NCBI GenBank assembly: GCA_905178155.1
Contig: CAJINV010000003.1
Location: 9,369,979-9,433,978 of the forward strand
Direction of reading: 5' to 3'
DNA from: Amoebophrya sp. A120
Lineage: Eukaryota; Protista; Dinoflagellata
DNA: 64,000 bases
Of the stretch, positions 3-53,820 are shown one piece after another. The notes beneath the pieces are model-generated. The model was not told the DNA's origin and ran no database searches. It saw nothing but the letters and a program-made list of their open reading frames with translations. Positions within the stretch are counted from its first letter, which is position 1. The number at the start of each line of letters is the position of its first letter. Both the position numbers and the translations under genes were made by a program.

Positions 3-2987
3 GTTCTGCTAGTCTTCCAACCTCTGGAGTCGAGCCGGATGGTGGACCCGGTTCGCGGAGTGCAGGAAGTTGTCGTGCTCTACAATTTGGCGGAGCTTGA
101 GAGAGAGTTTTTCGCTTTGGACGCCAGTCAGCCAAACAAGTACCGCGCTGGCGCGGTGGGGATAGAAGGGACGCCGTTCGTGGCGAAACTCAGTCCGGAC
201 TTTGGTTTTCCGGTGGACTTCGTTGTACCAACGGAAGGTGATCAGGGTGAGGCGGTTGCCGCCTTTCGACCATCTCGGGAAACGGCCACCCGCTACGGGC
301 GCCGCACGTACGCCTCATCGGATGAGGCAGATGCACCCCAAGCGGTACGCGTTTCCACGTCCGTGCCTTTGCCACTGGATTTGTCTGTTAACTGCCTGTG
401 GGTAAAAGCGACCGGGAACTTACCCGACGTTGATGCAGACTTTAGTACAAATGCGTTCCAAATCCCGACTCTCGGCACGCACCGCAGCTTGATGCGGCGT
501 GAATACCTCTGCCCGACCCCGAGTACGTCGTCCTCCGCGGCGTCGATTTTCAAAACGCAGGACGGGGAGCAGATGTACTTGGGGCTCGTTTTGAGTCCGG
601 ATTTGGACACAGGCCTCAAGTCGCCGCCTTACCTCCTCGGTCGCACGTGGCGTCGCTTCGACATGTTGCAAGCTGCGCCGGTGTGGCGGTCCGTGTTCCC
701 GAAAACGGTGCCGTCGGTAGCGGGGTCTGGCTTTTCGCTTACCTTCTTTGGGACCGGGTTTCCGCACGACCGCGAGGCAGCCGCTTTGAACGCCCGGTGC
801 GTGCTTTGGGACGCGGAAGAAGGACTGCGGACGTATGACGCGCTTCTCGTTTCAGACGAGCAAATGGTGTGCTTTTTCCCGCTAGGTCTTCCGAAGGTGG
901 ACTTGTACGCCCATTTGTCGCAGCTGCAGTTTACTTTCCACGCACGAAATGAGTTCCGGAAGCAGCAGTATGATGTGGCGGGAGCGCAGCAGCAGGTTAG
1001 CAACAACTCGTCGCCGCTGGACGTCCGCCCGCTGCGGCCCTTTGAGATCACGGCATGGTCGCCCCCCTTCCTGATGCTTGGCGATGAGTCTCGAGAGGTC
1101 CGCAGGTCTCGCTTCTTGAAATTCAACAACGATACTCCGATGGCGACGGTGACCGAGCCCGCGGATGTGGAGCTCTATCCTGAGAAGGACGAGGAGCTGG
1201 TTTTTATGAAGGTCGCGGGACTCCCGGAGGATTGGCAAGCTCAGTCCAAAGCGTGGTACTGCGCGTGGGCGCCGCCTCACGTATCGCTTGAAGAAGCGCA
1301 CGCCGCCCGGGAGGACGAGCTCTCTTCTGAGGCCAGTCCGGCAGCGAAACGACGACAGCACATGACCCAGCCGCGCCCCTTCTTCAACTACAACAGCACG
1401 GATTTTGCTTGCGGCGTGCCCATCGACGCCGTTGCCACCCAGCAAACCCTACGGATGTTCCTACAACTCGGGGGTCCCCCCGTCGACGAGACGACTGGCG
1501 AGAAGCAAGCGTCCGGCCTGGAGGACCGCTATGCGAGTCGGTTTTTTGCGACCCGTGTTTCGGTCACGGTGCTGCCCCGAATCCGCGTACGCGAGGCGCA
1601 GAGGTCGCCGGTTCAAATTCCAAGCTCTGACCAGGGCGATTTGCTCGTCCGTTTTTTTGGGTCTGGGTTTGCCGCGAACGGCACAATTTATACTCGAGTC
1701 AAGTTGGATCCACATGCGGAAGTAGAAGCGCTGGAGCCTAGTACTGGTGTCTCCGAAAGCAGCAGTGCGGCGTCGCAGAATCGACCAGCGTTGACGCCGT
1801 ACGGAAACGTTTTCTACCCCTGCTACGCCGAAACTTATACGAGTCTTGCTTGCGTGCTGCTCGCGGCGGACCTTCCGCCGGAAGCTGACGGCCTCAAAAT
1901 GCCGCTGGAGTTGTGGTTGTACCCACAGGCTTTGACAGAGGAAGTAGAAAAGGCTCCGGCGGGTCGCTTGGGGTACGGACCCCAGAGCGAAGCGGCGTCA
2001 AGAATTGAGGGGCTCGGAATTTTTCTCGGAAACTTCGAGGCGACCGCCGTAAGGGGCGCTTTAGGACCGTTCAGCACAACTCCGCGTTCCGGAAGTTTTC
2101 TGCCCCTCGGAAGTCAAGTTGACTTTTTTGTTTCCGGAAGCTTCAAAACTTCATGCCAGCACTTCTGCCATCTGCGCTATGAGGGTCTGCCGTGGTCAAA
2201 GTATCGTCAGGCCTTTACGCATCCTGGGCGGGCGGTTCGAGTGAATGCGACGCACTTGTATTGCACAGTGACCACGGTTGGCGCCGAGCTGCTTCGTGGC
2301 GGGTCGGATCGCGTCACCTTACATATGTGTTCAGGGAAGGAGACTTGCCTAGATCTGAACAACCCGCGCACTACTCCAGAAGGTGTGCTCTTGGGACGCT
2401 TTCGCGTGTTTACGCTTGGAACACTTTCCGCTGAACTCTCAACGCGGGTGCTGATTTTTCAGCAAGATCTTTCGTCAGAGGCGCAGGTCCGATTCGCAGA
2501 CCGAAATACCGAAGTGGCGCCGCGGAGCACGAAATCGATCCCGTCGAAGGTGACGCTGATCCACGTCGAGGTCTCCGAGGGAGTCGTGCCACGAGATTCG
2601 TTGCCGTGCTACTGCCAGATTGGTCCGGACTCTTATTTGGCGGCGCCAGTAGAGGAGGGCGCTGGCGCAAAAACTGGAATCTCGCCGAGCGACGAGCAGG
2701 AGACCTTGTTCGTAAAGGCCTTCCAGTGCGCCGTCCCGCCCTTTTCCGCGTCGGAGGGAGGACGAGCAGGAAACATTTACTACCAATCCGAGAAGAGGCT
2801 TCAGCTTAATTGCCGCACGCACCAAGGGTACGGCCTCGCGGCCGAGGGGTCGACGCCTCTGTTTCCGCTTGCGCGTCCGCGATTCTGGGCGCAGAGTATC
2901 GGCGCAGTGCATTTGCCGATCCCGAAATTACAGGAGTTGACGTTCACGAATCGCACCGTTTCCCCACTGTTGATACCGCAAGGATCG
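3..2987 (+). CDS. Giant gene, first visible exon (divergent IPT/TIG-like repeats)
   Basis: ORF 39-3011 is open to the window edge. Its last codons (YPKQKDR) are read-through into the introner TIR. Confidence 0.8.
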
Positions 2988-5900
2988 TATCCCAAACAAA
3001 AAGACAGGTAGGGCATATTTTTGAAAGTAATGCAAAAAAAATGATAAGCAAACGAACAAGCACTGCCTAAGCAGCAGGCTATGGGCTCGCTCATGACAGA
3101 TATTTAGTTTCGTGGGAATTATTATTTGTGCCCAGCCTGTCTTTTTCTGCGGGATAGATCGGGTACGGCAGAGGAAGCAACGTACTACGGTACGAAGACG
3201 AAAGCGACGGAGAACCAATCCTACAGTGATCCTCCGCGTCGTTCATCGTCCTCGCAAGCTGTGGAAACGCCTCTGTTCAGTCTGCGCATGTACTACTCGG
3301 GTTGGGAGAATGCGAAGACCGGCGAGGTGGCGGCTAGTTTGTCACGGTCCTACCTGGTAGGAGCACCTGATAACGAGGTGCTGGAACGGATCATGTACAT
3401 GCGATCCCGAAAGACCGAGAGCAAGGCTGCCACTATCTTTTCTCCTGGCAGCGGGGGGGACGCCCCCGCGCGCTTTACGCAGGACAACACAACGAGTAAC
3501 CGCACAAGCGTGACAATGGTGAACTCAGTCTCGTATTTGGACACACCGATCTCACCCGCCGAGTTGGAAGGACTGGGCCTTCTTGTTGTGCCATCGAGCG
3601 GATGCTGGATTGAAAGGCCACCGCGCACGGAGTCGTGGCCGCAGACGCTCGCTTGTCACTGGCGGGAGTCTGCGGATGTGCAAGGGCTCCTTTACGACCT
3701 TGACAACGCTAAGGATTCCAGGGTGAAGTTTCTGCAGACGAATTTCGCACAAGAGTATGTGAACAGAACGCGAGTACCGACGCGGAGCTTCCTGCAGGAA
3801 AGCCGCCCGGTATCGGTGTGGGTTCAGATCGCTGAAGAACTGGTGAGTACGCAGCAGCAGCTTGTTTTCAGTCGTATGCCAAGCGGGGCGTTTACGCGCG
3901 ATCGCGTCTGCGTAGAGCAGGAGCCGTGCTTGGTGACGGTGGAAATCAGTGCGGACTCGCCGGCGGGATTCCTCCACGACGCGGTGTACTCCTGCCTGTT
4001 CAGCAGCAGTGGGGGTGGCTGCGCGGCAGATTCGATGGAAGCCGGGCCGCTGCTCGTGGAAAGTAACGCGGGGCTGACGGAGACCTACGCACTCGACCGG
4101 TCGGCCAGCCAAGGCAAGTGCAGCTTCGTGTCCCGGGCGCGGTACGTCAGCGCAGACAAGTTGCTGTGCACGTCCGAGATCGGATTGACCTCGGCTTTGT
4201 CCGGTGCTGACGTAACTCACGTGTCCGTGTTCCATGGCCCAGTGCCGGCGAGCCGAAGTTTCAAGGACGCTGCGGACATAGCCTCAAGTGGCTACTTCGC
4301 CGGGGACTCCTCGGCGGCCACCTTATCCTGAGTAAAAACGTACCCACCCCAGAGTTGTCATGCAGATTTGCCATGACAGGAACATTTGTGACGCGCAACC
4401 CCATGACAGGCATTTTCAATCGTGTTTGGGAACTTGTAATGCTGCAAACAGGATCAGAAGGTCGATTTGTGATGCTGCTTTCCTTGCTAACTTGCACTAC
4501 CTTACGGACTGAAACTTGTCATGCGTGACTCACAAAGCTCCTAGGTTTGTGTTGCAAAATCCCCAGCCTGACTCTGGTGTGGGTACGTTTTTACTCAGGA
4601 TACACCTCGCTCGCGATTCTAGCCCAGCACCGCATAACCGTGCTGGGCATCCTTCACCTGGACCAGGTGGTGCCGGCTGTACTCGCCACCGTGCCAGCTG
4701 TCGAGATCAGCGTGAAGATCACAAAACAGAGCAGCGTATCAAATGCGAATAATGTCTGGGCCGGGAAAAATGCAACGTTTGCCATGCACATTTTACATGG
4801 CTTTGACTCCTGATGTCTGTGATGCATGCCTCAGCATCACAGATTTTGTGAGGGGGGCTTCCTGAAGATGCCTACACCGCATGAGCAATGCCCTTTCGTC
4901 GCAGTAGTAAAAACTGGACCCCTTTTGCTGTTCCACCTACAACAGCGCAGATTTTCTCAGAATCCCAATGCAGCATCACAGGATGCATCCTTCCAGACCA
5001 AGACATGTTTGCAATGCATACAGCGAGTTGTCGGAGGCCTGGCAGAACCCGGCATTCGTGGAGAGCACCGTGGCGTGCCGGTTCCGCAAGAAAATTCCGA
5101 ACAGCAACGCGGATGTGGGCAAGGATGCGAACCTGATCACGACACAAGTAAAGCTGGTTTCCTTTGAGGAGATTCTGTGCGTGGACGCCTACCACCGTTT
5201 GTTCGACTACGTTCTCAAGCAGGATGAGCTGAACGCCTCGGATGGCTTCAACGAGCACAAGGACCTGTTCTTAGATTTGGTCACTGTCGGGACCGTGCCG
5301 CAGCGGCTGTCGAACGTGTTGCAGTTGCCACTCGTCGCCTACCCGCGGCTTCATCAGGTTGAGCCGTCCATCATTGGCGTGAACGACATCTCGGAGGCCG
5401 GGTTGAGGCCGTTGAGTGCATTTCCCTATCGACTGATTGTCACCGGTGTTGGGGTGCCGAACACGCCGGATGCGTGCTGCCGCTTCGTGGTCTCCAACCG
5501 TCCTCAGGGTAGCAACCAGGGCCCGGTGGCGCCCATCTTCACACCCGCGGTCTGGCGCTCCACCACACAGATCGCCTGCGACAAACCCGTGTTTCCGCTA
5601 GCGGGGGCACGGCTGCAGCTCGAGATTTCGCCCAACTGCAAGCAGTTCGTGACGGCGATAGCCGCCGGCGAGCCAAATTACGACAAGCTATTGCCCCTCT
5701 CCGAGAAGCCGTCTGCTTCCGCGGTTTTGAATTCCGTGCTGGAGCTTCAAGTGGTGCAGATTCCCTTCCTGAAGTCGGTGTATCCAACGCAAATTGTGAG
5801 CGTGAGCGCAGGCGCGCCACTGCGTCTGGAGGGCGAGGGGCTCAGCAACAGCGCCATCCGCCTGCGGGTGGGCGGAAAGATGCTGTCGGGCATCCGGATT

Positions 5901-8900
5901 CACAATGACACGGTGATAACCGCGCTCGCACCCGCGCCGCCCATGCGGAGCCCCGAGGTTTCGCAGGCACACTACCACCTCGATCTGTCGTTCGACTCCG
6001 GCATCAGCTTCTACAAGACCAGTTTTTTGCTCTCTTTCCAACAGAACCACGCGGTCTGGGGGATCGAGCCGCGCATCGGCGTTGCAGGAAGCGCGAGCGG
6101 TGGCCAGATTACGATCAGTCTGGTCGGGCACTTCAACTTTGACACCTTCGCTACCTCGCTCGGTCCGGAAGAAGGTGCTGTCGCGCTGCGTCGGTCCTTC
6201 GACTCGCTGATTGACGCGTCGGCGACGAAGCGGATCATGGTTGACGGAAAATTGTTTGTGATTCACGTACCCAACATTTTGCTCGGGGAACGTATTCAGG
6301 GCTTTACTCTGGAAGGTCTTCGCGTCTTTGATCAGATTCCGGAGGCGGTGCCGACCGTAGATATCGCCGGGGACAAGGGCTTGCTGATGTCAATCACAAC
6401 GGGCGACCAGCTGCAGCTGTACGACATAGCTTCGACTGTGCGTCTCTCACAGTTGCACTTTTCTGTTGCCGAGAGCCCAGGGCAGATGTCAAACACGACA
6501 TACGGTAGTAGCTCATCTGGCGATGCTGGCAGCAGCGATACCGAGGGCAACAACAGTTCTGCAAATGCAACAGAAACCGCGGCGCAGAACGCGGCAGCAG
6601 CTGAGCCGGAAATAATCAGCTACACGTCGGAATGGAGTGTATCGGGTGTGATGATGAATTCCCTGCAACAGGCAAAAGAACCGTTGCAGCGAGAGGTTCT
6701 GGAGGCGAGTGGGAATAAAACTCGCTTGTACGTCCGAACCTACGCGGCAGTTTTCTACCGTGAGTACAACGAAACGGATGCCTTGACCAACATCTCGTAC
6801 CAGACGAAGTCTCTCGACCTGTATCACATAGAGTGGAAATTAAATCAGACCGCCTTGGAGCTAGCGCAGCAGGTGCAGCAGCGCGCCGGCAGCCAGCAAA
6901 GCCTCGAAGCGCACTGCGATGAAGGAAACACGACGGCGAGTGTTTTTTGTGGGAACGAGACAAACGCAACTGGCGCAGCAGAAGCGGCCGCGGGAGCAGG
7001 GACGACAGACGGCTCCGCGTCGCAAGCGGGGACCAACCTTCACGTTGTGGAGATCATTTTCCAGCAGCAGCTGAATCTGACGGACGAACTAGGGGAGCAG
7101 CGTCCGAGCTATGTGGCACTGGTGCCCAACCTGACCCACGTCGTTGCGTACCGAGTCGGCGGGGAGCTGCGGGTATACAATTTCGACCGGCCCGCACGCG
7201 TTGCAACTATAGAGCAGGTCGGGATGCGGGCTGTGGATGTGGAGTACTACGAGGGTAGCCGCTTTCGCGCCGCGTTTTCCTTTGGTCGGAAAGCCGAAAG
7301 CTGGATCGTGGAAAGTGACCCCGCGTTGGGCACCGACGCCACCTCGCAGTACGCGTACTTCTACGGGGGGCACGCAGACGATATCACTGCGATTGCACTC
7401 GGGCCAGGCTATTGCCTCACCGGCTCGAAAGACACGACCACGAAGCTCTGGCGCGACACGGGGTCCATCACTGCTTCGTTGTTCGGGCTGCACCGCACAG
7501 CGATCACCGCCGTTGGGTTCGTGCAGATCGGCCGGGACTTGGAGTTTGTCACGAACGACGCCACACAGATCGCCTTCTGGGGGTTCCCCCAGAAAGTCCG
7601 CGACAGTGCGGCCGCGGACCTGAGTACGGCCGCCTGCCGCTTCTTGGCGCCTCCCATCGACGCCGCCTCGGGCACAACCACCCTGGTGTCTGCCGTGCAG
7701 AGTGCGGTCGTCACGAGAACGAAGGTGTATTGCTACACCGACCCAAACACCCTTACCTTCAGCGACGGGATCGCCCGCCACGACTACCAGGTCATGCTTG
7801 GGCGACCTCTGCAGATTGAAGTTGCCTACTACTACAAGCAGGCTGACCGAAAGTACTTGTCGCAGTTCGTGCCGGTAGCCAAGGACTTGGGTTTCCGTTT
7901 TGTGTTGCCGCCAAAAATCATGGACATGACTCCCGATTGGGTGATGATCAATCGCCACCCGAAAACGAACTACGTAATTCTGCCGGACGTGGCGTTTCGG
8001 GTGCGCGTTATGCTCAGCGATAGCATGGCCGTTTGGCCGAGCAGCAACACCACGTGCAAGATTACGAGCACCGGCGCCGATGGCACAACCTACTATCTTC
8101 CCACTAGGTGGCCATCGCGGAGCGTGTGTCTCTGCGGACCCCTGCGCGACATCCACCAGTTTCCTTCAGCTAACGCCCTTCGCCTGGAGTTGTCTCCGGA
8201 TTACCAAAACCTGTTCGCGGTGCCGTTCTTGGTGAAGATGTTTGAACGCCCCACCTTCGACACAATGACCACATCCGCGGGCCGGCTCCTAGCCGACGGC
8301 AATGGAGTGATAGCAGGGGTTTCCCTGCATACGCCGGACTGGATAACCATCCGGGGGAGCAACTTTCCGCTCACGAAGTCTCCGATAACCGTCACGTTTC
8401 CGCCCGGGTACTGGGCGAACGCATACTGGCGGAACTCGACCACGCTCGAGTTTTTGAGCCCCGTGACGAAGAAGCCGGAGTACCGGTTACCCGTGTGGAT
8501 CGCTTTCGGGGAAGCGAAAGCCATGAAGACGCCGTTTCTTCTGGATCTGATTGAGACGCCAACCGTCCGCGCGTTCGAACCGGCTTACTTGTTTCCAATC
8601 ATGTCACCCACAGGCGGCGACAGCGACTTGACCCACGCCGTCGCCGCGCGGCTCGGTACAGCGGAGGCCAACCGGCGGCAGCTGACCATCTACGGAAACT
8701 TTTTTGACCACCACAGCTACTGCGCGTTTCAAACAACCTCGCGAAAGCACAATGTGAAGGCGGTCTTGGTCTCCAAGAGACAGATCACCTGCGAAGTTCC
8801 ACCGCTTCCTGTGTCCGACGTGGGTGCAGACGCAGCCGACCGCGGAACGAGCTCGCCGACGACAATCGAAGACGGAGCCGCGAGTTCGTTGACCGGCGAA

Positions 8901-11900
8901 CAGTACTGTCTCGCCGAGCAGCAGGGGCGGGTGCAGCTGCAGCAGGCCCTGAACTTACGAAACTTGCTTTTCTTTTCCCCGTACCCCGAAAGCCTGCTTG
9001 CGACCTATCCGCGCCAGCGAATGGAATCGCAAGAGAAAAAGTTCACCGTCCTGGAAGGACAGAACTGCGCCGAGATTCTGCAAAACCACGCAGATCTGGT
9101 TGAGGGAAATGCCGGGAACGACACGGTGGCTGAGGCGCTGGGCAACAACGGGTCGTCGAATGACACGGGCCTGCTGCAGCTTCATCTTGCGACGAATCAC
9201 ACCCTTAATTTGACCGCCACCGTTGCGGCACTACTCGGCTCGGCAGATGCGATAGCCGCAGTGTTGAGTAGCACGGAGCAACTTGCCGCTCTGTGCCTGC
9301 GGGCCAGTGACTTGGCGCGTAACATGAGTAATTATCGACTTGAAACTCAGTACTACGATGCACTAATGTACCAACTGCAGCGCGGTGTGAACGACGCGGA
9401 GACCGGCTGCCGACAGGCGACGGAAGCTCGTGCACAGGCGGCGCTGAGTGACTTCACGAATGGGCGGCTCTTCTTCGAGGTGCGGAGTGAGCGCTTGCTG
9501 CCACTGTCGAAGCATGTGCACATCAGTGCAAGCGCCAAGTCGCTCAAGCTGCACCTGCCTATTCTGGTCGAATCGGTGACGCCGGGTGCCGCGCCGGTAA
9601 CCGGCGGGACGCGGCTCGTGGTAAAGGGTCGCAATTTCGTGCAGATTGCACCGACGTACTGCGTGTTTCAGTACGCCATCTTCACTCAAGCCCGCGTCCT
9701 GAATACGACACACTTGACGTGCCAGAGTCCCTTTTCGAACCGATTCGGTAACTTGCAGCTGCACATATCCCTGAACCGACTCCAGATGAGCGAGAGCTTC
9801 ACGTGGTTCACAGTTCTGCCCGAGGTGCAGGTCAGCGTGGCGGCCGTCTCGCGGGGGTGTTTTGCGGAGAGTCCAGGAGACGTCATCCGTGTGGACGTGC
9901 TGCTGAAGGAGCAGAGTGCCCGGACGTGGGCCAAGTACCGAGACCGGGGCGTTCTTTGCCGGTTTGTCAACGAGGACACCGGATATTTGGATGACCAGGA
10001 GGCAGTGTCGGCGGCACCCGGAAAAATTGACGAAGTGCATATTTTCTGCCGGTGTCCTGTGTACCGCGGGCACCAGATTGGGCAGCGGCTCTCCCTGCAA
10101 CTGCAGGATACGGAGGGCGTGTGGCAGGATGCGTTGGGGGAGATGCAAGTCCTCGCGCGACCCTTGGTGACCAGCGTGAGTCCGCGATTGTGGATCGCCA
10201 ACAGCACCTACCCCCTGTCAATAGAGGTTCGGGGTACCAATTTCCCACCCGACGTGGAGCTCAAGTGCACATTGGAAGACAGCGAGAAGCACCCGGACGC
10301 GACGCCTCTGGAGGCGGTAAAGAAGATGGAAGCGAGCCTCTGGGAGGAAGTACAGAGGCTCTCACTCCGCTGCCGCAATCAGCGGGATGAGCGGCAGGAG
10401 GCCTCCGGGGCGGCGCCGCCTTTGGCCCGGTTCGGGCTCTCCGAGGGAATGCGCGGGACCGCAATGCCGTACGATCGATACCGGCTACCGAGCGGGGTTC
10501 TGAAGAACGAAAGCGCGAACGTCTCGCAACTGATTGAGTTTGGGGGGAGTGTGGATTTGGATTTCTGTCAAGCGTACTTGGACGCCGAGAAGGAGTATCT
10601 CGCGTTTGTGCATCGGACGGACCTCTGGTCCGCCCACGGCTACTATCAGGACAACAGCACGGGCGACGGATTTGCGTTGCAGGACCAAAACGTGCACCAC
10701 ACGCGGAATTTCTTCGCCGCGTCCGGCTACGCGGCGCAGCGGCCGCCGCTCCGCGAGTACGCCAGCCGCGTGATGCACGTCAAGGCCGAGTGGCACTCCG
10801 CCTCGATGTTGAAGTGTGTGGTCCCTCCCGACCACGCGGAGAAACTGCGCACGGCGGGACTTGTGAATCGCTATGTAGAGCTGGCTGTGCACCGCCATTT
10901 TTCCGATGTGCGCCCCCCTCGGCAGACGTTCGGGCAGATCGCGGCGCTTCACAAGATTCGAATTGGCGACAACATTCGGATTTTGGAAGTCTCCCCGCGT
11001 GCGTTCACGCGCCAGAGTTTCGACTTGGTGAACGAGCAAAGTCGAGAAGATCAGATTTCGCTGCGTGCGACCTTGTCCAAGTCGGCCATCAGGTCCCTGC
11101 GCTTAGCTACCGCGTTAAACTGTCGCGTCCGATGGGAGGTGGACACGCTTGCGCCGGCGGTGTTCCCCGGCGTAGTTTCGAGCGACACCACGGTGACCTG
11201 CCTGTTGTCCAGCTCTGCGCTGGAGGTCAATCTCCGAGGGTATTTCTCGCTGCAGATCGACAGCAGCGAAACGCTTTCGAATGAATTGGAACTCCACTTC
11301 GTGGAGCAGGTGTTCTCCCCCTCGATCTCGCCGACGTCTGTGCCCTCCTTCACGCCCGGCCGAGGCTTCATCATCTCAGCCATGTTCCTCTCTATCCGGC
11401 ACCTGCGCGTTCTGCGGGATCTTCCGATCTTCTGCGACTACGGTCCGGAGTATGAGGCTCGGGAGGCAGTAATGCTAGATTACGAATCTGTCTTGGGAAG
11501 CAAGTTTAGGCAGGTTGTTGGGCGGCCAATTCGAAACTCCACGCACGGCTCTGACCGGAGCTTCCGCATCACCGGGCACGACGAAATCTTAGTGGATACA
11601 GCCGTCGACCGTGTGCGATGGCAGTGCCTTGGTCCAGTTTCAGGGTTTCTACCTCGTATAAGCGGCGCGGAGGCCCTGGAAGTGAAGCTCGTACTGGACG
11701 CGTCTGCGCAGCGAGGGCTCAATCCCGCACTCACCAACAGGCCCACTCAGATTCACGTCACGGGTCTGCCTGAGATCGCTACCCAGGAGCCTTTCCTGGC
11801 GGCACGGGACACCAGCGTCCTGTTGGAGGCAGTGGTGCCGGACGGTTACAATCCTTTCGTCACTACGACTGCGATCGGCAGCACCGAACGGCGGGTTGAG

Positions 11901-35900: not shown

Positions 35901-38701
35901 TATCGAGTTCTCGTTCTCGGAGTTCTTTATGAAGAATGTTTGGCTGATGCAGGTCGCGATCTACATTGTAAAGCTGATCGAGCAGACCGTGTTCTCGCAG
36001 TTCATTCAGGAGGCTATTCTCCTGGTGCCGATCAATGCCGTGATTATGGTCGTGTCGAACCTGACTACGCTGGCGGCGGAGGACCTGCTGGAGTTCATGA
36101 TGGCATTCTTCGTGAGTATCGCACTGCAGGCGATTGACCGGCTTTACGTGTCCTCCAATCAGGACTTTTTCTACGAACAGGCCGTCCGCGGATGGAACCG
36201 AGTGAAGGAGAGCTACCGGTGGCTTACCTCGGGGGCGCGGTTCGTCGACGTGAACAAAGTTCTGGACCAGCTGGACGTCGCCCTCAGTTCGGATGACGAA
36301 GGCGAGACTGCAGCCAATCGGGATCCGAACAAAAAGGAATTCGTTTCCAAAAACGAGGAAGCGGCGCAACCCGAGGACATGATCGCGTTCATGTGCGGAT
36401 ATTCCACGGATCTGGTGTCCACCTTTCTCCTTCCGGTGTACATCCTGATCACGTGGTATGTCTACGACGAGAGCCAGATCTTAGTACGGTACAACATTCG
36501 AGTGGATGCGACCTGGGAGTACATCAATTTCTATGCGGTGGTGGTGTTCTTCAACCACGCAGTGGACATCTTCTGCATGAATACGCTCGAGCTCTTCCAC
36601 GGGTGGCGATTGTGCGACTACTTTGAATTCTGCGCCTACCGCTTCAGCAGTCGCCCGGTCCGCTGGAAGGGGTTAGGGGAGACCATCGACGAAACGGTGG
36701 CGCCCAGTCTGCGGAGCGTGGATTTGGCTTGTTTCAGCGAACAGTACTACTTCATGAACTTCACGTGCTGTCTGGGCATGCTGGTGTACATTCTCGGGTT
36801 CCAGATCATCCTGCAGAACGACTGGAACGCGTTCTCGGATCCGAACTCATCGCTCACCTTCATTCTCACCCTCGCCTTCTGCAAGGTCTTCCACAAAGTG
36901 ACCTCCACGATTGCGGACTACCTGGAGATTTGGTACGTGCCGCACACTGACATGGAGGTTTCCCTTCTGCGAGGCTACATCGACATCCGCGGTCTGGACG
37001 AAGAACTCCGGGACATTATGCTCTGTGAAACCGTCCCCGCCCCATAGTTGTCATGCAAATCTGCATACTTAGTAAAATATTTTCGAATTTGTGATGCTCC
37101 AATCAGCATAATAGGCAAGATCTGTGATGCTTCTGAACTAGCTAAACAGGACTACATTACGATGCCAAACCTTTCACGCGCAACAACCAAAGCTGGGCGA
37201 TTTGTCTAGCAGATTGGCAATCTTGACTGCAGCGCCCCGACTAGAATAGTTGAACGGTGAAGAAGGGGGCAGGGGAAAAAAAATTTGCGATCTTGTTGCC
37301 GGGGCGGGGACGTTTTTACTCAGGATAGGCACAGAGGCAGACTTTGTGCAGAACCGGCGGGAAATCAAGCCGCCGGCATGGTCCGTGCTGCACGATTGGA
37401 AGCCTCCCCACGCCAGCGACGTGCTCGGACTAGACCGGTACCGGACTGCCTTCATCCAGGAGAACCAGCTCTGGCTGCAGCACGTGTTCGCAGATCTTCT
37501 AGACGAGGAAACGAACCTGCAGTACCGGCGTACATTATTGAAATCCTTCACGAAGATTTTAGGCGAGATCGAGCCGCAGTACTACTCGCCCTATGGCGTG
37601 CCTCCGAAAATGGTAAACGGGCAGATCGTGGTACCCACCGGCGCAGCCGCGACCAGTGGCACGAGCGGGTTCGACTTCGACACAGCGCCGCCTCAGGAGC
37701 TGGTTGCCCACCAGGTTTCGCGGCGCATGTTCAACATGACCGAGACGCTCGCGCAGGAGATTTTGCGCATGTGGCTGGCGCGGGCACGGTTCCTCACATG
37801 GCTGGAGGATGTGTCGTCGCACTTGACCCCGCACTCGTACCACAAGAAAGAGATTTGCGAGTTGTGCAAGAGTAACTACGACCTTTCCGTGGTGCCCGTC
37901 TACAACATGGATCACCTTGGGAGTCTGTACCGGTTGCAGCGCGACTACTCCCCGATCTTCAATACCCGGATGTGGAACCACTTCTACAAAACCTTCACGC
38001 CCACATGCACGGTGTGCCAGAAGTGTGCGCAGTACTACAGGAGTCGCAACTTGGACATCCCGGTTGACGAGCGTCGTTTCATGCGAATGGTGCCGTCCTC
38101 CGACATGAGCAGTCACGCCATGCTGCAGCGCTCCAAAACGGAGCTCACGGTGGTCGACGGGCTCACGAGGACGCTGATCGAGTTATGGTATGAGTGGGCC
38201 TGTCGTTTGACCAAAGGAGAGCCGCCCGAGAGCTTCTTGCCAAAGTGGGGATTCGAGGCACCGACACGACCAAATTTCTTGGATGCCATCGCGGGTGCCG
38301 ACACAAGGGCGCTACTGGCGGACTCTGACGAGGAGGAGAACGAGGAGCTGAATCGCGAGGAGCGAGAAAAACAGCGCGAGCTCGCCCGAAAGCAAAAGCT
38401 GCGCGAAGAATGGTCGAGCAGTGATGAGGAGGACGAAACGAAGAAGTTGCCCGGGGAAGTCAAATTTCCTGTGGTGGACGTGTCTGCGCAGGTCGCGGCC
38501 ATGGTACGCCTGTGGCATGACCTTGCGGTGCGGAATCTGCGTCACCCTGTGCTGAGCGACTGGATCGACCACGTAAACGAAAGTATTCCAGTGGACGTCG
38601 CGCGCCCGGCTGGGTTTCGCCAGCGGTCACAATACGTTGCGGTTTCAACGATTCTCGATCGCATGCAGAATCAGCAGGCGGCGGACCAGACAGGCAGGTA
38701 G
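3..38701 (+). CDS. Giant multi-exon gene, 5' end outside the window: IPT/TIG-repeat + GCC2/GCC3-like cysteine-repeat + multi-pass membrane protein, at least 10,961 aa. Exons: 3-2987, 3162-4323, 4608-4736, 5026-14411, 14679-28300, 28612-28649, 28943-30149, 31632-31694, 31870-31915, 32183-32392, 33767-34272, 34640-35020, 35235-37016, 37333-38701
   Basis: The frame is open from base 3, so ATG39 is probably internal. Removing 11 TIR elements (each plus one 5-bp repeat) and two GT-AG introns joins the + ORFs without stops. Exon sum is 32,886 nt = 10,962 codons, ending at TAG 38699-38701. Motifs: IPT-like (P..GP..GGT.V.V.G.NF...C.FG), CP.G.YC repeats and hydrophobic helices near the C-terminus. Confidence 0.85.
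2988..3156. mobile_element. Introner-like intron, family B (169 bp)
   Basis: Left end TATCCCAAACAAAAAGACAGG; right end reverse complement TATCCCGCAGAAAAAGACAGG. Direct repeat GATCG at 2983-2987 and 3157-3161. Removing 174 nt gives PQGS|GTAEE in frame. Confidence 0.9.
3162..4323 (+). CDS. Giant gene exon 2
   Basis: Core of ORF 3126-4331, bounded by two TIR elements. Confidence 0.8.
4324..4602. mobile_element. Introner-like intron, family C (279 bp)
   Basis: 32-bp TIR TATCCTGAGTAAAAACGTACCCAC(C/A)CCAGAGT with 1 mismatch. Direct repeat CACCT at 4319-4323 and 4603-4607. Removing 284 nt gives SAAT|SLAILAQH. Confidence 0.93.
4608..4736 (+). CDS. Giant gene exon 3 (129 nt)
   Basis: SLAILAQHRITVLGILHLDQVVPAVLATVPAVEISVKITKQSS, in frame at both junctions. 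Confidence 0.8.
4737..5020. mobile_element. Introner-like intron, degenerate family A (284 bp)
   Basis: Left TATCAAATGCGAATAATGTCTGGGCCGGGAA and right TTCCAGACCAAGACATGTTTGCAATGCATA are decayed versions of the family A TIR. Direct repeat CAGCG at 4732-4736 and 5021-5025. Removing 289 nt gives KQSS|ELSEAW. Confidence 0.88.
5026..14411 (+). CDS. Giant gene exon 4 (9.4 kb; IPT/TIG-like repeats, short WD40-like stretch at ~7362-7580)
   Basis: Core of ORF 4968-14423. Contains PGAAPVTGGTRLVVKGRNF..TYCVF and GHADDITAIALGPGYCLTGSKDTTTKLW. Confidence 0.9.
14412..14673. mobile_element. Introner-like intron, family A (262 bp)
   Basis: Perfect 30-bp TIR TATCAAATGTAAAAATGTCTGGGTCTGGAA. Direct repeat TGGCG at 14407-14411 and 14674-14678. 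Removing 267 nt gives LYAGVA|TPKAVL. Confidence 0.95.
14679..28300 (+). CDS. Giant gene exon 5 (13.6 kb; IPT/TIG repeats, kringle/FN2-like insert, cysteine-rich repeats)
   Basis: Core of ORF 14613-28346. Clear IPT repeats at ~20950-25140 (e.g. PPFGTTEGGTIVQLEGSHF..LTCKFG). CP.G..C repeats at ~25149-27825. Confidence 0.9.
28301..28606. mobile_element. Introner-like intron (306 bp, diverged TIR)
   Basis: Left TAGCAAAGTGAAAAAAACCCCACCCCATAT; right reverse complement TATCGTAAGGAAAAAACCCCCTCCCCATAT. Direct repeat CCGAG (28296-28300) / CCGAA (28607-28611). Confidence 0.85.
28612..28649 (+). CDS. Giant gene 38-nt micro-exon
   Basis: Lies between two TIR elements and reads LP(S/N)KMLSSFSNKCIA|YHQQ. 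It links the frame of ORF 14613 to that of ORF 28852. Confidence 0.75.
28650..28937. mobile_element. Introner-like intron (288 bp)
   Basis: Left TACTGCAGTGAAAAATGCCCCCA; right reverse complement TATTGCAATGAAAAATGCCCCCA. Direct repeat CGCGT at 28645-28649 and 28938-28942. Confidence 0.9.
28943..30149 (+). CDS. Giant gene exon 7
   Basis: Core of ORF 28852-30228. Coding-like composition ends at about 30150. Confidence 0.8.
30150..31631 (+). other. Probable canonical GT-AG intron (1482 nt)
   Basis: GTATTC at the start and TTTTTCCTCGTAG at the end. Splicing gives DLET|YADPVVLKN in frame. Confidence 0.7.
31632..31694 (+). CDS. Giant gene 63-nt exon
   Basis: YADPVVLKNTAFTLNLYAEYE, between an AG acceptor and a TIR element. 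Not in the ORF track. Confidence 0.75.
31695..31864. mobile_element. Introner-like intron, family B (170 bp)
   Basis: About 55-bp imperfect TIR (TATCACACAGAAGAAAACTGGCAGGGCATATTTGTAATGCAAAAA...). Direct repeat TACGA at 31690-31694 and 31865-31869. Similar in ends and length to the 2988-3156 element. Confidence 0.92.
31870..31915 (+). CDS. Giant gene 46-nt micro-exon
   Basis: EIDFKVEVQILNGLFV, in frame between two TIR elements. Confidence 0.78.
31916..32177. mobile_element. Introner-like intron, family A (262 bp)
   Basis: Same 30-bp TIR and same length as 14412-14673. Direct repeat TTGTC at 31911-31915 and 32178-32182. Joins GLFV|ADRLMF. Confidence 0.95.
32183..32392 (+). CDS. Giant gene exon 10
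   Basis: Core of ORF 32132-32422 (ADRLMFERS...ELPYNMP...WAFLNWSP). Confidence 0.75.
32393..33766 (+). other. Probable canonical GT-AG intron (1374 nt)
   Basis: GTACTG...CCGCAG, phase 0, joining LNWSP|MKFVIF. Exact sites are unverified. Confidence 0.6.
33767..34272 (+). CDS. Giant gene exon 11
   Basis: ORF 33767-34315 (HLPYWSNCRGFG...WFEA), truncated by a TIR element. Confidence 0.78.
34273..34634. mobile_element. Introner-like intron, family C (362 bp)
   Basis: TIR TATCCTGTGTAAA(G/A)ACGTCC. Direct repeat CTCAA at 34268-34272 and 34635-34639. Interior aligns by eye with 4324-4602. Joins FNEL|KERVL. Confidence 0.92.
34640..35020 (+). CDS. Giant gene exon 12 (first predicted TM helix)
   Basis: Core of ORF 34545-35063, including FYTITYQIIGLTAVFMVFVNWCY. 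Confidence 0.8.
35021..35229. mobile_element. Introner-like intron, family D (209 bp)
   Basis: 31-bp TIR TATCCAAGAAAAAAACTGTGTTAGTGTAACT with 3 mismatches. Direct repeat CGGGT at 35016-35020 and 35230-35234. Joins SESR|VSPRLL. Confidence 0.92.
35235..37016 (+). CDS. Giant gene exon 13 (multi-pass transmembrane region)
   Basis: Core of ORF 35056-37047 with many hydrophobic segments. Confidence 0.85.
37017..37327. mobile_element. Introner-like intron with family C-type ends (311 bp, diverged)
   Basis: Right reverse complement TATCCTGAGTAAAAACGTCCCCGCCCC; left TATGCTCTGTGAAACCGTCCCCGCCCC. Flanks GACAT / GGCAC match 3 of 5. Removing 316 nt restores the frame. Confidence 0.85.
37333..38701 (+). 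CDS. Giant gene last exon (predicted cytoplasmic tail with CxxC pairs and an acidic/charged stretch)
   Basis: Core of ORF 37250-38701, containing CELC...CTVCQKC. AT-richer non-coding sequence follows the stop. Confidence 0.82.
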
Positions 38702-41700: not shown

Positions 41701-42354
41701 GAAATTAATGGACTAATGCCAGCTTTCGTTCCGGCAGCGTCAGAATTAAAAAGACCACAGACTTCCGAATAACAGATCACAGAACCAGGACTCCAGTGGA
41801 CATTTTGCCTGCCCATTGCACATGTAAAATTGATTTTTGATCCCGGGAGAGGGGATCTCTCATGCAGAATAGGCATAGAGTTGGAATGCTTTCGCAGACT
41901 TGGTCAAGCTTTCTAAGGATTGCGGACCTTGTTCTGGACTGAAAGACTTGTGCATTGTTCTACCCTACCCAGGCATATTTGTAATTGCTATCACACCTCG
42001 CTTGCCGGTGAGCACTTTCCTATGTAGAGGAACGGGGCAAGCTTCTTTTACCGTCGACAGACGGCGAGTCACCATGCTTTCTGATTTATTGGCCAAGAAA
42101 TTTTCTACGTGCCTCTGGGAAAACCTGAATTCGAGAGGACAAGGACGATCACATCGAGGTACGGGAATAGACTAACTCACCGCCTAGAAGAATATTGGTC
42201 ACCAGTGTCGACGGCATGGTCGTCCTGCGTGCGTGAACGTGTCGACGGCCGGTCGTCAAGGGAGCTAGCGCGTCGGTAGAGGCACCAGACACGTAGTTGC
42301 ACGGGGCAAAATAAAGGAACAAACCATAGCCACGCTTTTTGGAAACTCCTCGTG

Positions 42355-45300
42355 ATGGATTGGCAATTTTCCGTACAGCAAGGCCTGCGGTGCACGGTGA
42401 TCTTGCAAGTTAATCACACTCGAGCCTACCAGGACCGCAGCCCCGCAACGTCGCAAGCCAGCGGCTTTTTCATTTACCGCCTCGAAGAAGAAGGTCTTGG
42501 AGTGTTGCTTACAAATCGGCATAGTGCGACCTTGGGTCCGTGTACGATTTACGCCAGTTTTGAGAAGCACGAGCAAGTGAAGTGCGACGTGCTCTACTCT
42601 GACCCGTTGCACGACTTTGCATTCTACGTCTTTGATCTGCAGCAGTTACGTCGCACGAAATTGGGGCGGCCGTTACCGCTTAATGCCGCTGGTTTGCAGG
42701 TTGGTGTCGACGTGAAGATTGTGGGCAATGATGACGAAGAACGAAACCAGATCTTGAGCGGAACAGTGGCGAAGATAAATCGAAACCCGCCTTGCCTCGG
42801 AGACTACGACCAGGATCTGCATACCTTTTATGCGTTGGCTGCCTCGAGTACGAGCTGTGGTAGTTCCGGGTCGCCGGTGTTGAACATAGCTGGGGAAGCG
42901 ATTGCGTTGAACACTGCGGCAGCGAACACCGGATCGGGAAGCTACTACTTGCCTTTGGGGAAAGTAGTGGAAGTTTTTAAGTATTTGATAAAGCTCTACG
43001 ATCACGAGACGTGCCGCGTCAAAAGCATTAACAGTCAGAACCTTGGAATTGAGAATAAAAGCAATCCAGACGAAGATCATGAAACAAGCGATAAGCCCTG
43101 GCACCGCAAACCCATCGCAGAGCTGCTTAGTGATGCACCACCGAAGCGCGGTACCTTGGACTGCATTTTTAATTGGGAGGCTATCGAAGAAGCTGCGATC
43201 AATTGCGGGCTGGATCGAGCGGTGAATCTCACCGCTGGGAATCTCACTGCAGCCGCCTTCCGTCCCGCGGATGATCGTGCTCCGATCCCTAAAAATCGCG
43301 ATTATAAGGCCGGTGGTAATTTTTTTGTAAGTGGCGCGTCGTCCTCGTCCTCCGGGTCCGCAACTACGACAGGTGCTACGGATCATTCTGGTGCAGCAGC
43401 CAGCCCGAGCGCCGAGCTGCCGGCAGTAATGGAGCCCTCGAGAGCAACGCCGATGGGGTCGTTTTTTAGCCCTGGTGGCGCAGCAGGAGCAGCGCACGCG
43501 GGGGTCTTAGTGGTTGAGGAGGTGCTGCCCAAGTCGCCGGCGTCTGATTTACTGCAGGCAGGTGATGCGCTTGTCGAGCTGGACGGCATCAACATGGTTG
43601 ATCAAGGCCTAGACGCCTTTCAAGTTCTTGAAAGTATCCTTGACGCCAAGGTGGGGACGGCTGTCGAAATGGCTGTGTGCCGGTCGGGGCGTCTGGTCAA
43701 CGTGACCCTGCCGGTAGAAGACTTGTTTTCGCGCTGCATTCCGAGTGTTCTCTTGGAGTTCGGACTCGGTTGCTTTCACGACGTGGCGCAGGCAGTCGCA
43801 TTCCGACACCACATCGCCCAGAAAGGCGTGTATGTGGCAAAGCCCGGGCATCTTTTCGCACAGCTGTTTGACGCGGAAACGGGTGGCATCATTCGTGAAA
43901 TTAACGGAATTGCATGCGACACGGTGGATCAGTTCGAGCACCGGATGGCGAACATTCCTGACGGGGACCGATTTCTTGTGTCCTACATAACTTTTGATTC
44001 GGGGGGTACCAGGAACTTTCGTGAGCTAGTGTGTGGACCTATGTCACGCCAGTGGCAGCAGCCAGTCGTCTGGGAGCGACAGGGTCACACGGGGGGATCT
44101 AATTGGGTGTGCCGCGATGCACTCGGCACGTCTGCTCCTACTGAGCGAGACCATCATGTTGCGCCGAATCGAAGCGCAGCGGTTGAAGCGAGTGGCGCCG
44201 TCGTCAAACGTGGTCGATCGCCGCTTGTCTCGTCCAAAGTTGGACCTAAACCTCCTCTCCGTAATGGAGCATTGCAGTGTCGTAACCGGAAGCGTCTACC
44301 AGCGGTTCCTCTTCGAGATGCAGAAGATGCCAGCGACTCCGAGGACTCGGGGAGTGACATTGACGGGGAAGGAAGAGGACTCGGGTCGCTCTGCAGCACG
44401 GACGGAAGCAACTACTGTGCTGGCAAGGTCAACAATGTCTCGTCCCCCTCTGGAATCGACGCGCAGCGGCAGATCGATGAAAGTGATGCGCGCATCCTGC
44501 GCGACGCATTTCGAGACACTCTTGCTGTGGTGGAATGGAAGATTCCACCTGAGATGGCGGTCGGGCACACGGAATTTGCGTGCGCACACCGGCGCGGCAT
44601 CGGCATAGCTGTTCCTCCAGGAAACGTGTTTCTTTGCCCTCGAACAGTTGTTCCGCAGGCCATTGCGTCCGTTACGGTTCAGCTGCTAGCACCCGAGGGT
44701 GCACAGCACTCGTCCCATTCCAAGAAACAATTGTTCGAAGCCGTCGTCGATTTCGTTCATCCGACGCAGAATTTTAGTCTGGTCCGTATTTTACCCCCGG
44801 GCGCCAGCAGAACAATCTCTGGAGGCGAGCCGTCGCTTTCAATCGCTGACAAGCGCAAGCTGTACGGCTCGGACGCGAAATGCAGTGAGAGCACAGAGTG
44901 TGATGTCCTCGCGTGGAATCGAAATACTCTTACCGATCACGCGAATCAAAAGGGTGCAGGCAAGGAAGTGAAGATGATGCCACCGCTCCGGCCGGCGGCG
45001 TTCCAGTCAGAAGAATGGAATGCCAGCTCCGAGATGTCGAAAAACGTGCGAAAGTACCTGAATCTAGACTCCCCACCTGAGGGTAGCACAGGTGCTTGCC
45101 TTGCATTCGCGCCTGCTTCTGCTGGCTCTATCAGAAGTTCTGATAGCGCGACAAAAAACGCCGTCGCCGGCAAGGCAGGTTCATCTGCAGGAAGCCTCGT
45201 CGCTGATGGCAGCAAACTCAAGGCTGCGGACGGGATCCAGGGAGAGGATGCGGTTCTGGTTACAGTAACGGATGACCTGCAGATCGTACCCACGCGGAAT

Positions 45301-46954
45301 TTTGAATTTCTGTGCTCACAGCCGACGGTTTTAGAAAATGTATGGACACATCCTCCCCGCTGGCGTGCGCGAAATACTCTTGTCACACCACTCGATTGTG
45401 GACAGGATTTTCTTGGAGGAGTCGTCGTCTCGTTGTCTCAATTTCGTGCTGCAGCGGAGGAGGTCCACAGTTTGCGACAGCACAGCGGCGCACGCAAGGC
45501 ATCACCAGAGGGCCACAAGATGAACCACAAAAGTATGAAAGCCAGCAGAAATAAGCATGACGTCAGCAGGTCGAAAAAACGAAAGCTGGATGTTGATACC
45601 ATCGTCGATGGAGAAAAACAAGGCGAAAGCAAAGCACTGACAAATGATACCCTGCTCAGGAACAATACAACAGGTAGCGTCTCCGGAAACTACAAGTTGC
45701 GAATGTTTAACGATCGTGCAGGAACCGCCCAGGGCAGCAGCCTTTCAAGCGATGAACTTCTGTGGAACTTTACGGAAGCGCTGCCACTCGTGAGCGCTGT
45801 AGTTTTTCCGTTTCCGTATGTTAGTAGCGAGACAGCAGAAGGACCCGTGGAGCACGCGGACATGGAGGAAAACGAGGACGGTGAGCAAAGCCGTACCGCT
45901 TCAGGTTTGGCCAGTAACGGGTTTCCAGACACCGTCGGTGTGGATTATCTGGCCATTCCAGTCAAGCAATTCATTGGATGGATCTCTTCTCCCGATGAAA
46001 AATACGAACAACTCGGTACACCTGAGCGTGATCGCATTTGCGGACTTCATGGTGGAGCGTGTGACGTTAGCGGCAGCAACAGCATGACTCCGCAGTGCGA
46101 GCGGGCCCGCGAATGGCCGGACGCCGCCCCCCGCGGACCGTCACTAGCCCGGAACAGCTCAGACTCGAGTGACAGCAGGGCATCGTCGGGATCATCGACT
46201 AAACCACATTTGGCGATGAAATCGAGCCTGCCCGAGCCGGCTTCGCGCGACTGCATTCCTGCGAGGGCCCGCGTCGGGGAGACTAACGAAAAACTCTTGC
46301 GAAGTGCTGACTCAGAAGTGGTGGCAAGAGCATTAGCCTCGTCTTCGTCACGCCCGTGCATCCGGAGTGGCGGACTCGGCGTCGATCGGCCTGCAGCGTC
46401 GAAATGTATGGCCTTGGGTGAGTCTCCTTCGTCGCGCGCCCCGGATCTGCAGCCGAGGGACGGCAGTAGTGCTGCCTCCTCAACAGCTGCGCACGAACTT
46501 TTGTCGTATAATTCACGACATCTTCGCTTACTGCCGTATGCAACACGGTATTGCGTCCCTGTGCTTGATGTGGAGCTGTGCGCTTTCGAAGCAGCCACGC
46601 TTGAAGATTGGCCAGAGAAGCTTCGTCCCCCGGCATCATTCTTCAGCCGACACAAGGCGTCTAGCGCACTGAAAGTATGTTCGGGAGCATCTCGGGCAGA
46701 AAATTCGGATGCGGCCGAGTACCCGCAGACCGGCGATATCATGGTGAAGTTACAGAGTCGGAATTTCCGCAGTGTCATCGACCTGGAGAACGCGCTCTGG
46801 AGTACGAAGAAGAAGACGTTGACTGAGACGGGACTTCGGGCGGATGTCTACCGCAAAGGCGTGCTCCGCAGAGTACTACTACAGCCAGAGTTTCGTAAGT
46901 CCGATGGCGCGGAGCGCATGGTCATTTTTCACGGTTTGGTAGTGGTGGAGTCAC
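42355..46954 (+). CDS. NMA111: Nma111/DegP7-like HtrA serine protease, exon 1
   Basis: Catalytic triad motifs LLTNRH, DPLHDFAF and GSSGSPV. PDZ-like VLPKSPASDLLQAGD. Second, degenerate protease domain (VVPQA...FVHPTQNF). ATG at 42355. Confidence 0.85.
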
Positions 46955-47206
46955 TATCAAATGTAAAAATGTCTGGGTCTGGAAGAGTGCATGTTTGTCA
47001 TGCTTGTCTGGCATGACTCTTAAATCTGTCATGCACGTTGCCCAAGATCCGCATTTTTCTGTCATGCGGAGACGCAATTTGTCATGCAGAATAGGCAACA
47101 CTTACAAGCTCAGAAATTTGTCATGCTGAGCCAGCACTCGTGGCCTCCTCATGCTACGCCACTCGGCATCACAAGTTTCCAGACCCAGACATTTTTGCAT
47201 TTGATA
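46955..47206. mobile_element. Introner-like intron, family A (252 bp)
   Basis: 30-bp family A TIR with 1 mismatch. Direct repeat GTCAC at 46950-46954 and 47207-47211. Removing 257 nt opens a PDZ-like continuation. Confidence 0.94.
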
Positions 47207-47211
47207 GTCAC

Positions 47212-47401
47212 CGTTCTATGTTCCCCGCGTTTCATTTGGCAAACCAAATCCAGGCCTGTACGTCGTCCGGACAAAGCCGGGCACGCCAGCCAGTGCAAGC
47301 CTTGGACATGTGGGCGACCTATTCGTGATCCAGGTAGATGGCGTGCCGGTGAACACTTTAGCGGAGTTGCAGCAATTGGCACGGAATACAACAGGAAAAA
47401 A
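47212..47401 (+). CDS. Nma111-like protease exon 2 (C-terminal PDZ-like segment; 3' boundary approximate)
   Basis: PFYVPRVSFGKPNPGLYVVRTKPGTPASASLGHVGDLFVIQVDGVPVNTLAELQQL has a PDZ signature. Not in the ORF track. Confidence 0.75.
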
Positions 47402-48473
47402 GTGTTTTTTGCTCTGAAGTCGTGACGCAAACAAGGATGCGCCACAGATCATGAGTTTGGCTTGTCAGAAAAAATTTTTAAAAAAGTGCTGCCTTTAGCG
47501 TTAGTTTAGACGGTTTTTGGATGGCAATCGAACGGAAAGACAGGAAGCACAAGCGTACAAGAGGACTAGGCGGGAGTCATCTCTTTGATGCATATGGATA
47601 TGCCGCACAACTGTCACAGTGAGCCACACTTTTCTCGTCCCATATATGATGACGGAAATGCCCAGGTGAACGTGAAGCAGAAGGTCGTTCGTGCGTTGTT
47701 GCGGGATATCAATCGCAAATATGGCATGTCTGGGTTGAGTTGAGTTGCAGATTCACTTTGTGTCATGGTAAGTTTGCATTGCATGCAGGGACGATTGAAG
47801 CAGCCGAAAGATCAACATACACATTGAAACTTGAACGCTGCCAATGCGTGCGGCAACTGAATAGAAGTGCATGGACAGTGGCCCGAGGCGGGCTCTCTAG
47901 CACGACAAATCAGCAGATTTTCCAGTTCTGTTTTTTCGTTTCTCTACCTTAGTGCGAGCCCTTTTGCGTTTCTCCGCCGCAGTGCGAGCCCGCCGTAGAC
48001 CTATGCTTTCCATCTTTCACTAGGTCGGAAAGAAGTTTTGACATCATGCCACTGCATTTGGTCACCACGGAAACTTTGGTAGTTGAAGTACCTGCTGTTG
48101 CATGGATTGCTGTTCATGGTGCTTGCGTCAAGCGAGTGTAGCATTGCATCAAAAGCAGACCCAGAAGTCGTATTTTCAATGTATGGAACACCTGGATGGA
48201 CGGCAGCGGCTAGCTATAATGTGGATCATATCAATGCGAAATCAATCTTCCTTCCCTCCCTTTTAGTGAAGAAGTCTGTACCAGAACATCGATCTGTCTG
48301 TGCCAGAATTTTTGCATGAGTTTTCACTTGACGCATAAACAGGAGGTCGTGCACGGCAGACGAGTTTACGTTGTTATGTGATGCCAGTTACTGGCGCCGG
48401 AAGGCACGCCTATAATGCTGGAGAGCTGCTGATGATATTGTCATTGCTCCTTTACAAAATAAAAGGAACCAAG

Positions 48474-48612
48474 GAGAGGCAACGCAAGTTTCCTGAAAGG
48501 CAAAGGGGGGACGAGATGGATTTCAACTGGATGGACTGATCCCGTGTTCTGGCCCTGTCAGGAGTACTCGGTGAACCGGGATACGGGGGGCCCAAAAATC
48601 ACTCTTTGGTGA
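48474..48612 (+). CDS. Probable last exon of the Nma111-like protease (5' boundary uncertain)
   Basis: WISTGWTDPVFWPCQEYSVNRDTGGPKITLW* resembles the D..YWP..E C-terminal motif of Nma111/DegP7. Frame open from 48463. Confidence 0.5.
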
Positions 48613-51960: not shown

Positions 51961-51963
51961 CAT

Positions 51964-53604: not shown

Positions 53605-53820
53605 GTAAAAAGACTCGACGGGCCCCACCAAGTAGACGCTGCTCGCCAATTGATTTGATGGAAGCAGAGCACTAGCTCCGCGTGTATGTCCCTTTCGCTC
53701 CGATGGAGCCTCCGGGAGAACCCTGCCCCCTTGAGAACCCCCGGAAGCAGCCTTGCTCCCCCCGCGTCCCCGACCCCCTTCCCTCCTGCCTCTGTGGCTC
53801 CGGCACCTGGATTCCCCCTT

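Follow-up and report, generated by a model that had tools for sequence, protein, structure and literature searches.

Introner elements (IEs) are a described class of repeated introns in the dinoflagellate Amoebophrya sp. A120, for which Farhat et al. (2021; PMC7789003) give 29,850 repeated introns with junctions supported by RNA sequencing (RNA-seq). Since 2021 the question has been by what means Amoebophrya takes out about 30,000 introners with no GT-AG to go by, in part because a direct repeat masks the true border. We analyzed a 64,000-nucleotide stretch of this genome (the window; assembly GCA_905178155.1, contig CAJINV010000003.1, forward-strand positions 9,369,979 to 9,433,978), which matches A120 at 100% at the protein level and in which 15 such elements (e1 to e15, all listed on the plus strand) interrupt two genes. 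These elements are published IEs of a published genome, and their class is already known. For the same organism and annotated genes, the text of PMC7789003 describes, as we find here, ends of the form TAT, seven nucleotides and AAA, inverted repeats together with direct repeats (3 to 5 nt over the borders there, 5 bp here), a length of about 240 nt, and RNA-supported occurrence beside canonical introns within one gene. Its Fig. 3 legend treats the border as unknown and the position of the splice sites with respect to the hairpin as variable, whereas at this locus all five informative junctions fit a single register and the direct repeat can be dispensed with. In A25 the ends begin with TTA.

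Three further systems resemble these elements. Family 38 of A120, with TA..TA ends and a 5-bp duplication, is classed as Ginger-like (PMC12130899, supplement file 8), and the Ginger-like and IS3EU/GingerRoot transposons share with our elements TA..TA termini, a 5-bp duplication, and terminal repeats of roughly 30 to 50 bp (PMC12130899, PMC10045372). IS3EU/GingerRoot elements, however, usually make 6-bp rather than 5-bp duplications (PMC10045372), and the likeness noted here is one of termini. The nonconventional introns of Euglena likewise resemble miniature inverted-repeat transposons, have pairing ends and junctions blurred by direct repeats, and occur alongside GT-AG introns, but they carry a CAG/CTG motif and yield circular products, in contrast to the TA..TA motif and fixed register found here (PMC12501133, PMC11282704). 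The AG-AC and AG-AT introns of Fritillaria borealis also derive from terminal inverted repeats and target site duplications, have non-GT-AG ends, and occur genome-wide; they differ in having preferred end dinucleotides and a demonstrated spliceosomal route, whereas here the ends are sequence-free and a spliceosomal route is inferred (PMC13326754, PMC11282704).

Scanning for TA..TA segments flanked by 5-bp repeats brought out 12 elements, e1 to e12, at the positions and with the flanks and deletion lengths listed in a preliminary description of this DNA. The duplication is exact over 5 bp in 10 of these young elements and imperfect in e5 and e11. Nine of the 12 combine an exact duplication with a terminal-repeat score of 18 to 30, while e3 has weak arms despite its exact repeat; 20 Markov controls of the scan gave 0 to 2 pairs each at a score of 6 or more (9 in total). 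Three older elements with decayed duplications, e13 to e15, had been missed and are implied as further introns by the annotated protein of the second gene. In 11 of the 12 young elements the duplication has G or C at its center, against 60% GC in exons, a possible target preference.

Removal of the elements takes place at the RNA level, and the elements stay in the DNA. One 11,197-nt contig from run X3, classed as RNA only by the tool's guess though it lacks both canonical introns of the first gene, aligns to 27500-34260 in four pieces with no mismatches. The gaps between the first three pieces measure 38 and 104 nt, the values that the model for e5 to e8 predicts, and the last piece joins directly. 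The element plus 5 nt is missing at all four sites covered: e5 (28301..28606; flanks CCGAG/CCGAA; intron 28300-28610), e6 (28650..28937; CGCGT/CGCGT; 28649-28941), e7 (31695..31864; TACGA/TACGA; 31694-31868), and e8 (31916..32177; TTGTC/TTGTC; 31915-32181). DNA-like contigs from run X1, possibly the assembly's own source, cover 27500-28776 and 28752-31737 and retain e5, e6, and a canonical intron without differences and at single-copy depth. The A120 gene models were built from BLAT-aligned transcripts and are RNA-derived, according to the methods given in PMC7789003, and the annotated proteins carry element-plus-5 junctions at e5 to e15 (11 of 15 elements), including e9 (34273..34634; CTCAA/CTCAA; intron 34272-34638), e10 (35021..35229; CGGGT/CGGGT; 35020-35233), e11 (37017..37327; GACAT/GGCAC; 37016-37331), and, in the second gene, e12 (46955..47206; GTCAC/GTCAC; 46954-47210). 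Among homologues spanning the modeled junctions, alignments were gap-free in 35/36 at e7, 35/38 at e8, and 54/62 at e10, and less often at e9 (20/64), e11 (12/48), and e12 (38/79); none of 122 homologues spanned e1 to e4 or e6. In raw RNA runs X9 and X10 the partly fitting reads, 125 and 3 in number, all fell on the e8 family, and the exons received none. The preliminary description had grouped the elements with the Amoebophrya introners, as non-GT-AG introns that are removed precisely, and suggested looking for loss of the element plus exactly 5 nt, which is what the contig shows at e5 to e8 and the annotated junctions at e5 to e15.

Reading frame alone does not fix this cut. Deleting the element plus one duplication copy lets the frame read on, as had been claimed, but the solution is not unique, since deletions of the element plus 2 or plus 8 nt read equally far. 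The companion claim, that sliding the cut within the duplication never yields GT-AG, holds at all six slide positions in all 12 young elements. In-frame GT-AG alternatives lie within 45 nt of 9 of the 12, with the caveat that short exons may inflate the zero counts at e5 to e7, and at e11 there is a GT-AG pair that gives the same length. In e1 (2988..3156; flanks GATCG/GATCG; predicted intron 2987-3160) the duplication begins and finishes with G, which permits a second reading as a GT-AG intron at 2987-3157, that is, element plus 2 with one extra codon, with GT at -1 and AG at +1.

To locate the cut, we define k as the number of left-flank bases lying inside the intron, a quantity that becomes readable where the two flanks are mismatched. 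Five elements are informative: e5 allows k of 1 to 5, e11 of 1 to 3, e13 (47387..47644; CGGAA/TATGA; intron 47386-47648) and e14 (47707..48185; CGGGA/GAACA; 47706-48189) of at most 1, and e15 (48229..48533; GATCA/GACTG; 48228-48537) of 1 to 2. Only k=1 fits all five. The five cases thus fit one fixed cut, with the intron starting 1 nt before the 5' TA and ending 4 nt after the element's 3' end (the +1/-4 register), which gives the form N + TA...AT(A/G) + NNNN. In all three old elements the intron exceeds the element by 5 nt, although only 1, 1, and 2 of their 5 flank positions agree. The persistence of this cut beside decayed duplications argues that the direct repeat is a relic of insertion, dispensable and not a splicing signal. 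A profile built from the 12 young elements only placed all six old ends at +1/-4, within 40 nt and at three widths.

Protein sequences agree with this placement. Before the annotated protein of the first gene was fetched, we predicted from the three old elements and the contig border at e5 that it would have N at e5 and D-T at e11, and both were found, the residue at e5 having already been indicated by the contig border. Over its 3700 amino acids the protein shows no mismatches with k=1 to 3, two with k=0, and one with k=4 to 5. At the e14 column, 19 of 21 selected homologues have D (39/58 in a wider pairwise set), and k of 2 or more would give H, seen in 0/21; at the e15 column D is again found in 19/21 (49/52 in the wider set), and k=0 would give N, seen in 1/21. 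An 89%-identical relative has D at e11 and no indel there. Independently of the annotation, homology thus brackets this register too. At k=1, all 15 elements share U at +2, A at +3, A at -7, and U at -6, -16, and -17, while the first and last intron dinucleotides vary freely and GT/GC-AG ends occur in none of the 15. Positions +4 to +6 are mostly TCA or TCC, unlike the euglenid-type pattern of CAG there and CTG near the 3' end. The single cut register, the dispensable duplication, and a named candidate nucleotide for the chemistry (the A at -7) are what is new here. Our literature search, whose reach did not extend to the figure images of Farhat et al. (Fig. 3 and S19 to S23), found no publication stating the +1/-4 register.

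How does one register relate to the splice-site diversity on record? BLAT places a junction at the best partial GT-AG match, and in our simulation, which used this rule, the aligner slides inside the 5-bp repeat toward that match. The simulated donors were GT at 26 to 32%, GC at 6 to 8%, GA at 3 to 4%, and AT at 11 to 14% (published tallies for a 3852-copy family, 25.9, 5.0, 5.5, and 16.8), and the simulated acceptors were AG at 26 to 32% and AC at 16 to 25% (published, 26.3 and 19.8). The 12 commonest simulated pairs include eight of the nine motifs called predominant in A120. An element-plus-2 cut predicts no GC or GA donors. Since the simulation comes near the published tallies, the published diversity, in which many A120 motifs are listed at 2 to 3% each in the text of PMC7789003, is likely in large part an artifact of aligner sliding, and the tables neither support nor oppose k=1. 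We accordingly did not count the NT- donors of the published Table S4 in favor of either k=1 or element plus 2, as aligner sliding reproduces them without either. A sentence of Farhat et al. on four repeat bases that lie upstream from the 5' end may in part anticipate the +1/-4 register (PMC7789003).

Among the 24 ends of the 12 young elements, TA is present in 24, T at position 3 in 22, and A at positions 11 to 13 in 22 to 24, so that the motif published for A120 IEs (TAT, seven variable nucleotides, and at least three A) is found here. Copies of one family occur in opposite orientations: e4 (14412..14673; TGGCG/TGGCG; predicted intron 14411-14677) is inverted relative to e3 (4737..5020; CAGCG/CAGCG; predicted intron 4736-5024; 73.5% identity over 204 nt) and e8 (69% over 187 nt), with a weaker e8/e12 match. 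Occurrence in both orientations suggests that the signal for removal is the symmetric end. The hairpins of young elements are strong (z of -3.3 to -13.4), and out of 31 pairing registers the true one is best in all 15 elements; two of the three old elements fold no better than shuffles (z of 0.7 and -0.8). In e5 the outer stem is weak, and in e13 and e14 none is predicted, while an inner A/U helix persists; for this reason the end motifs look to be read as sequence. The earlier suggestion that a terminal stem or end motif guides removal thus survives as regards the ends, while a perfect terminal stem is not needed and the duplication does not set the cut.

The elements are noncoding, and these copies carry no transposase. 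An internal motif, GCATGACA, is present in 20 copies spread over 9 elements and absent from 35.8 kb of surrounding gene; it is likely a transposase-binding repeat. The e8 family is very high copy, with related copies inside the window; summed contig depth reaches 2.8 to 4.6e5 over e8 against about 23 on exons, a figure that is not a copy number. At e8 in run X1, many contigs link the end of one copy to the start of another across 12 to 38 GC-rich bases, and these short stretches would represent mini-exons between neighboring elements elsewhere in the genome.

We lean toward the view that these are nonautonomous inverted-repeat transposons removed from RNA as element plus 5 nt at a fixed register, by a retooled spliceosome that reads the transposon ends. 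Under this proposal, a Ginger/IS3EU-like transposase of the integrase type would insert the element and leave the 5-bp duplication; PMC7789003 reports no transposase found in A120. The 5' end would then supply U at +2 and A at +3 of a donor whose first base is free (N-UA), and both canonical donors of the first gene also begin GUA. An inner A5/U5 stem would bridge the two ends, and the A present without exception seven bases ahead of the 3' cut would act as branch point, from which the 3' cut would be counted. A 3' cut measured from the branch A would need no AG; either orientation would splice because both ends carry the same motif; and a fresh insertion would leave the protein unchanged because the 1 and 4 nt add up to the 5-bp duplication. 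For the chemistry, the somewhat better guess seems to us a retooled spliceosome that uses an N-UA donor and a branch A at -7. Precedents cited in the sources include spliceosomal processing of transposon-derived non-GT-AG introns in Fritillaria (PMC13326754, PMC11282704) and branch points fixed 2 to 4 nt before AG in Yarrowia, Candida, Trichomonas, and Giardia (PMC2483917). Table S6 of PMC7789003 credits A120 with 83 of 89 spliceosome proteins searched and lists U2AF65/35 and U1 proteins.

Several points weigh against this proposal. Four of the five register constraints rest wholly or partly on the published gene model, and the donor, stem, and branch steps rest on conservation in 15 elements. 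The conserved bases coincide with the transposon end motif and in young elements may be kept for transposition; an asymmetry of end deviations (5/5 at two "free" positions) is post hoc, with p of about 0.03 after correction. There is no shared branch consensus, YURAY matching at the -7 A in only 3 of 12 young elements, and on the transcribed strand G-U pairs are not enriched relative to A-C pairs (13 versus 8, p = 0.38; null at four widths). A U-tract upstream of a branch point is unusual, as is a 30-bp stem over both splice sites. Removal of e4, the main opposite-orientation case, is a prediction from its sequence. U1 snRNA is reported as undetected in A120, though found in another Amoebophrya, and a spliceosome is needed for canonical introns anyway, whatever removes the elements.

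Some of these same observations would suit a separate machine acting on RNA at the same fixed register, in which a stem-measuring nuclease or transesterase plus a ligase releases the RNA as a circle or in linear form, a route suspected for the Euglena introns. Neither end dinucleotide is constrained, young hairpins are strong, the true pairing register is best in all 15 elements, both orientations occur, and a branch consensus and U1 snRNA are lacking; Euglena introns, moreover, are described as needing inverted repeats and yielding circles (PMC12501133, PMC11282704). Against this stand the two old elements that keep the register while folding no better than shuffles and the match of the retained bases to donor positions +2 and +3. 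We regard a separate machine as a serious contender with perhaps a third of the weight, and a retooled spliceosome as the better fit.

Use of nearby GT/GC-AG sites by the ordinary spliceosome, giving slightly different junctions, would draw on the in-frame alternatives noted above for 9 of 12 elements, including the e1 and e11 pairs, but is excluded at e5 to e8 by contig borders and at e5 to e15 by annotated residues, and the relative at e11 agrees with the element-plus-5 reading; we consider it very improbable as a general explanation, with more room for it at e1 to e4 taken one by one. Programmed DNA excision, with transcripts made from element-free templates, had been offered as an option and would fit the transposon anatomy. 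It fares poorly here: the elements are in the assembly and, without differences, in the X1 contigs (with the proviso on their origin given above), they were validated as introns by RNA-seq in the account of PMC7789003, the X3 contig loses canonical introns as well, and precise transposase cutting is not expected once duplication and ends decay. No element-free junction was present among the 15 of 92 X1 joints listed, and contigs drop rare forms, which leaves room for a minor element-free DNA form; as the general explanation, DNA excision is hardly credible. Group II introns place their branch at an A seven bases from the 3' end, a resemblance to the -7 A that raises self-splicing ribozymes as a candidate, but lengths of 169 to 479 nt, interiors unrelated across families, both orientations, and the lack of any Rfam match in the window make this equally far-fetched.

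The first host gene (3..38701, plus strand) encodes a giant IPT/TIG-repeat membrane protein of at least 10,944 amino acids and holds 11 elements, including e2 (4324..4602; CACCT/CACCT; predicted intron 4323-4606), and two canonical GT-AG introns at 30150..31631 (1482 nt, donor GTATTC) and 32393..33817 (1425 nt, donor GTACTG), both on the plus strand, lost in the X3 contig, and matching the annotated protein. The assertion that no stops occur over more than 37 kb proved incorrect as it stood, since a stop remains at 30226 after removal of the gene's 11 elements; with the two GT-AG introns also removed, the frame is open for 10,944 codons and runs off the left edge of the window. The annotated A120 protein CAD7942610.1 corresponds to the last 3700 amino acids with no mismatches, and the open frame suggests that the first 7244 are continuous with the remainder. 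The public annotation found covers only those last 3700 residues, and the gene may be split in annotation. Its exons include two of 9.4 and 13.6 kb. The size of the X3 contig implies about 1.27 kb past the stop codon (38702-39970), a long 3' untranslated region if no further intron is present. An Amoebophrya match in a CryoSeek preprint was set aside as a different protein.

The second host gene (42355..48612, plus strand) encodes a trypsin-PDZ protease of the Nma111/HtrA-like type, identical (100% over 1533 amino acids) to CAD7942614.1 of A120, and contains four element introns, e12 to e15. Downstream, 49709-53658 holds two long open reading frames (49709-51337 and 51955-53658) with no Pfam match and no element found between them; the second is WD40-like by language-model features, a weak lead. 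A further element of 290 bp at 58765-59054 has undamaged end motifs, with pairing at 23 of 24 terminal positions, and flanks AGCAG/GGTGG; it lies outside recognized genes and may be an intron of an unseen transcript. It sits within a looser outer pair of element ends at 58127-59724, whose flanks are alike at 3 of 5 positions, possibly a longer, older element in which it is nested.

It was the old elements with decayed repeats that revealed the border. At somewhat less than even confidence, we suggest a broader reading, in which the transposon end is a complete, orientation-free splice code (N-UA donor, branch A at -7, counted cuts), the tens of thousands of noncanonical introns of A120 all belong to a single uniform class whose terminal dinucleotides are free of sequence constraint, the diversity published for them is an artifact of alignment, and any TA..TA element with a 5-bp duplication is scarlessly spliced from its first day. 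If true, this would be splicing in which neither terminal dinucleotide is constrained, it would explain the cost-free invasion of coding sequence by a transposon family, and it would supply a rule for reannotating the A120 genome. One register genome-wide and a named branch nucleotide are directly testable questions.

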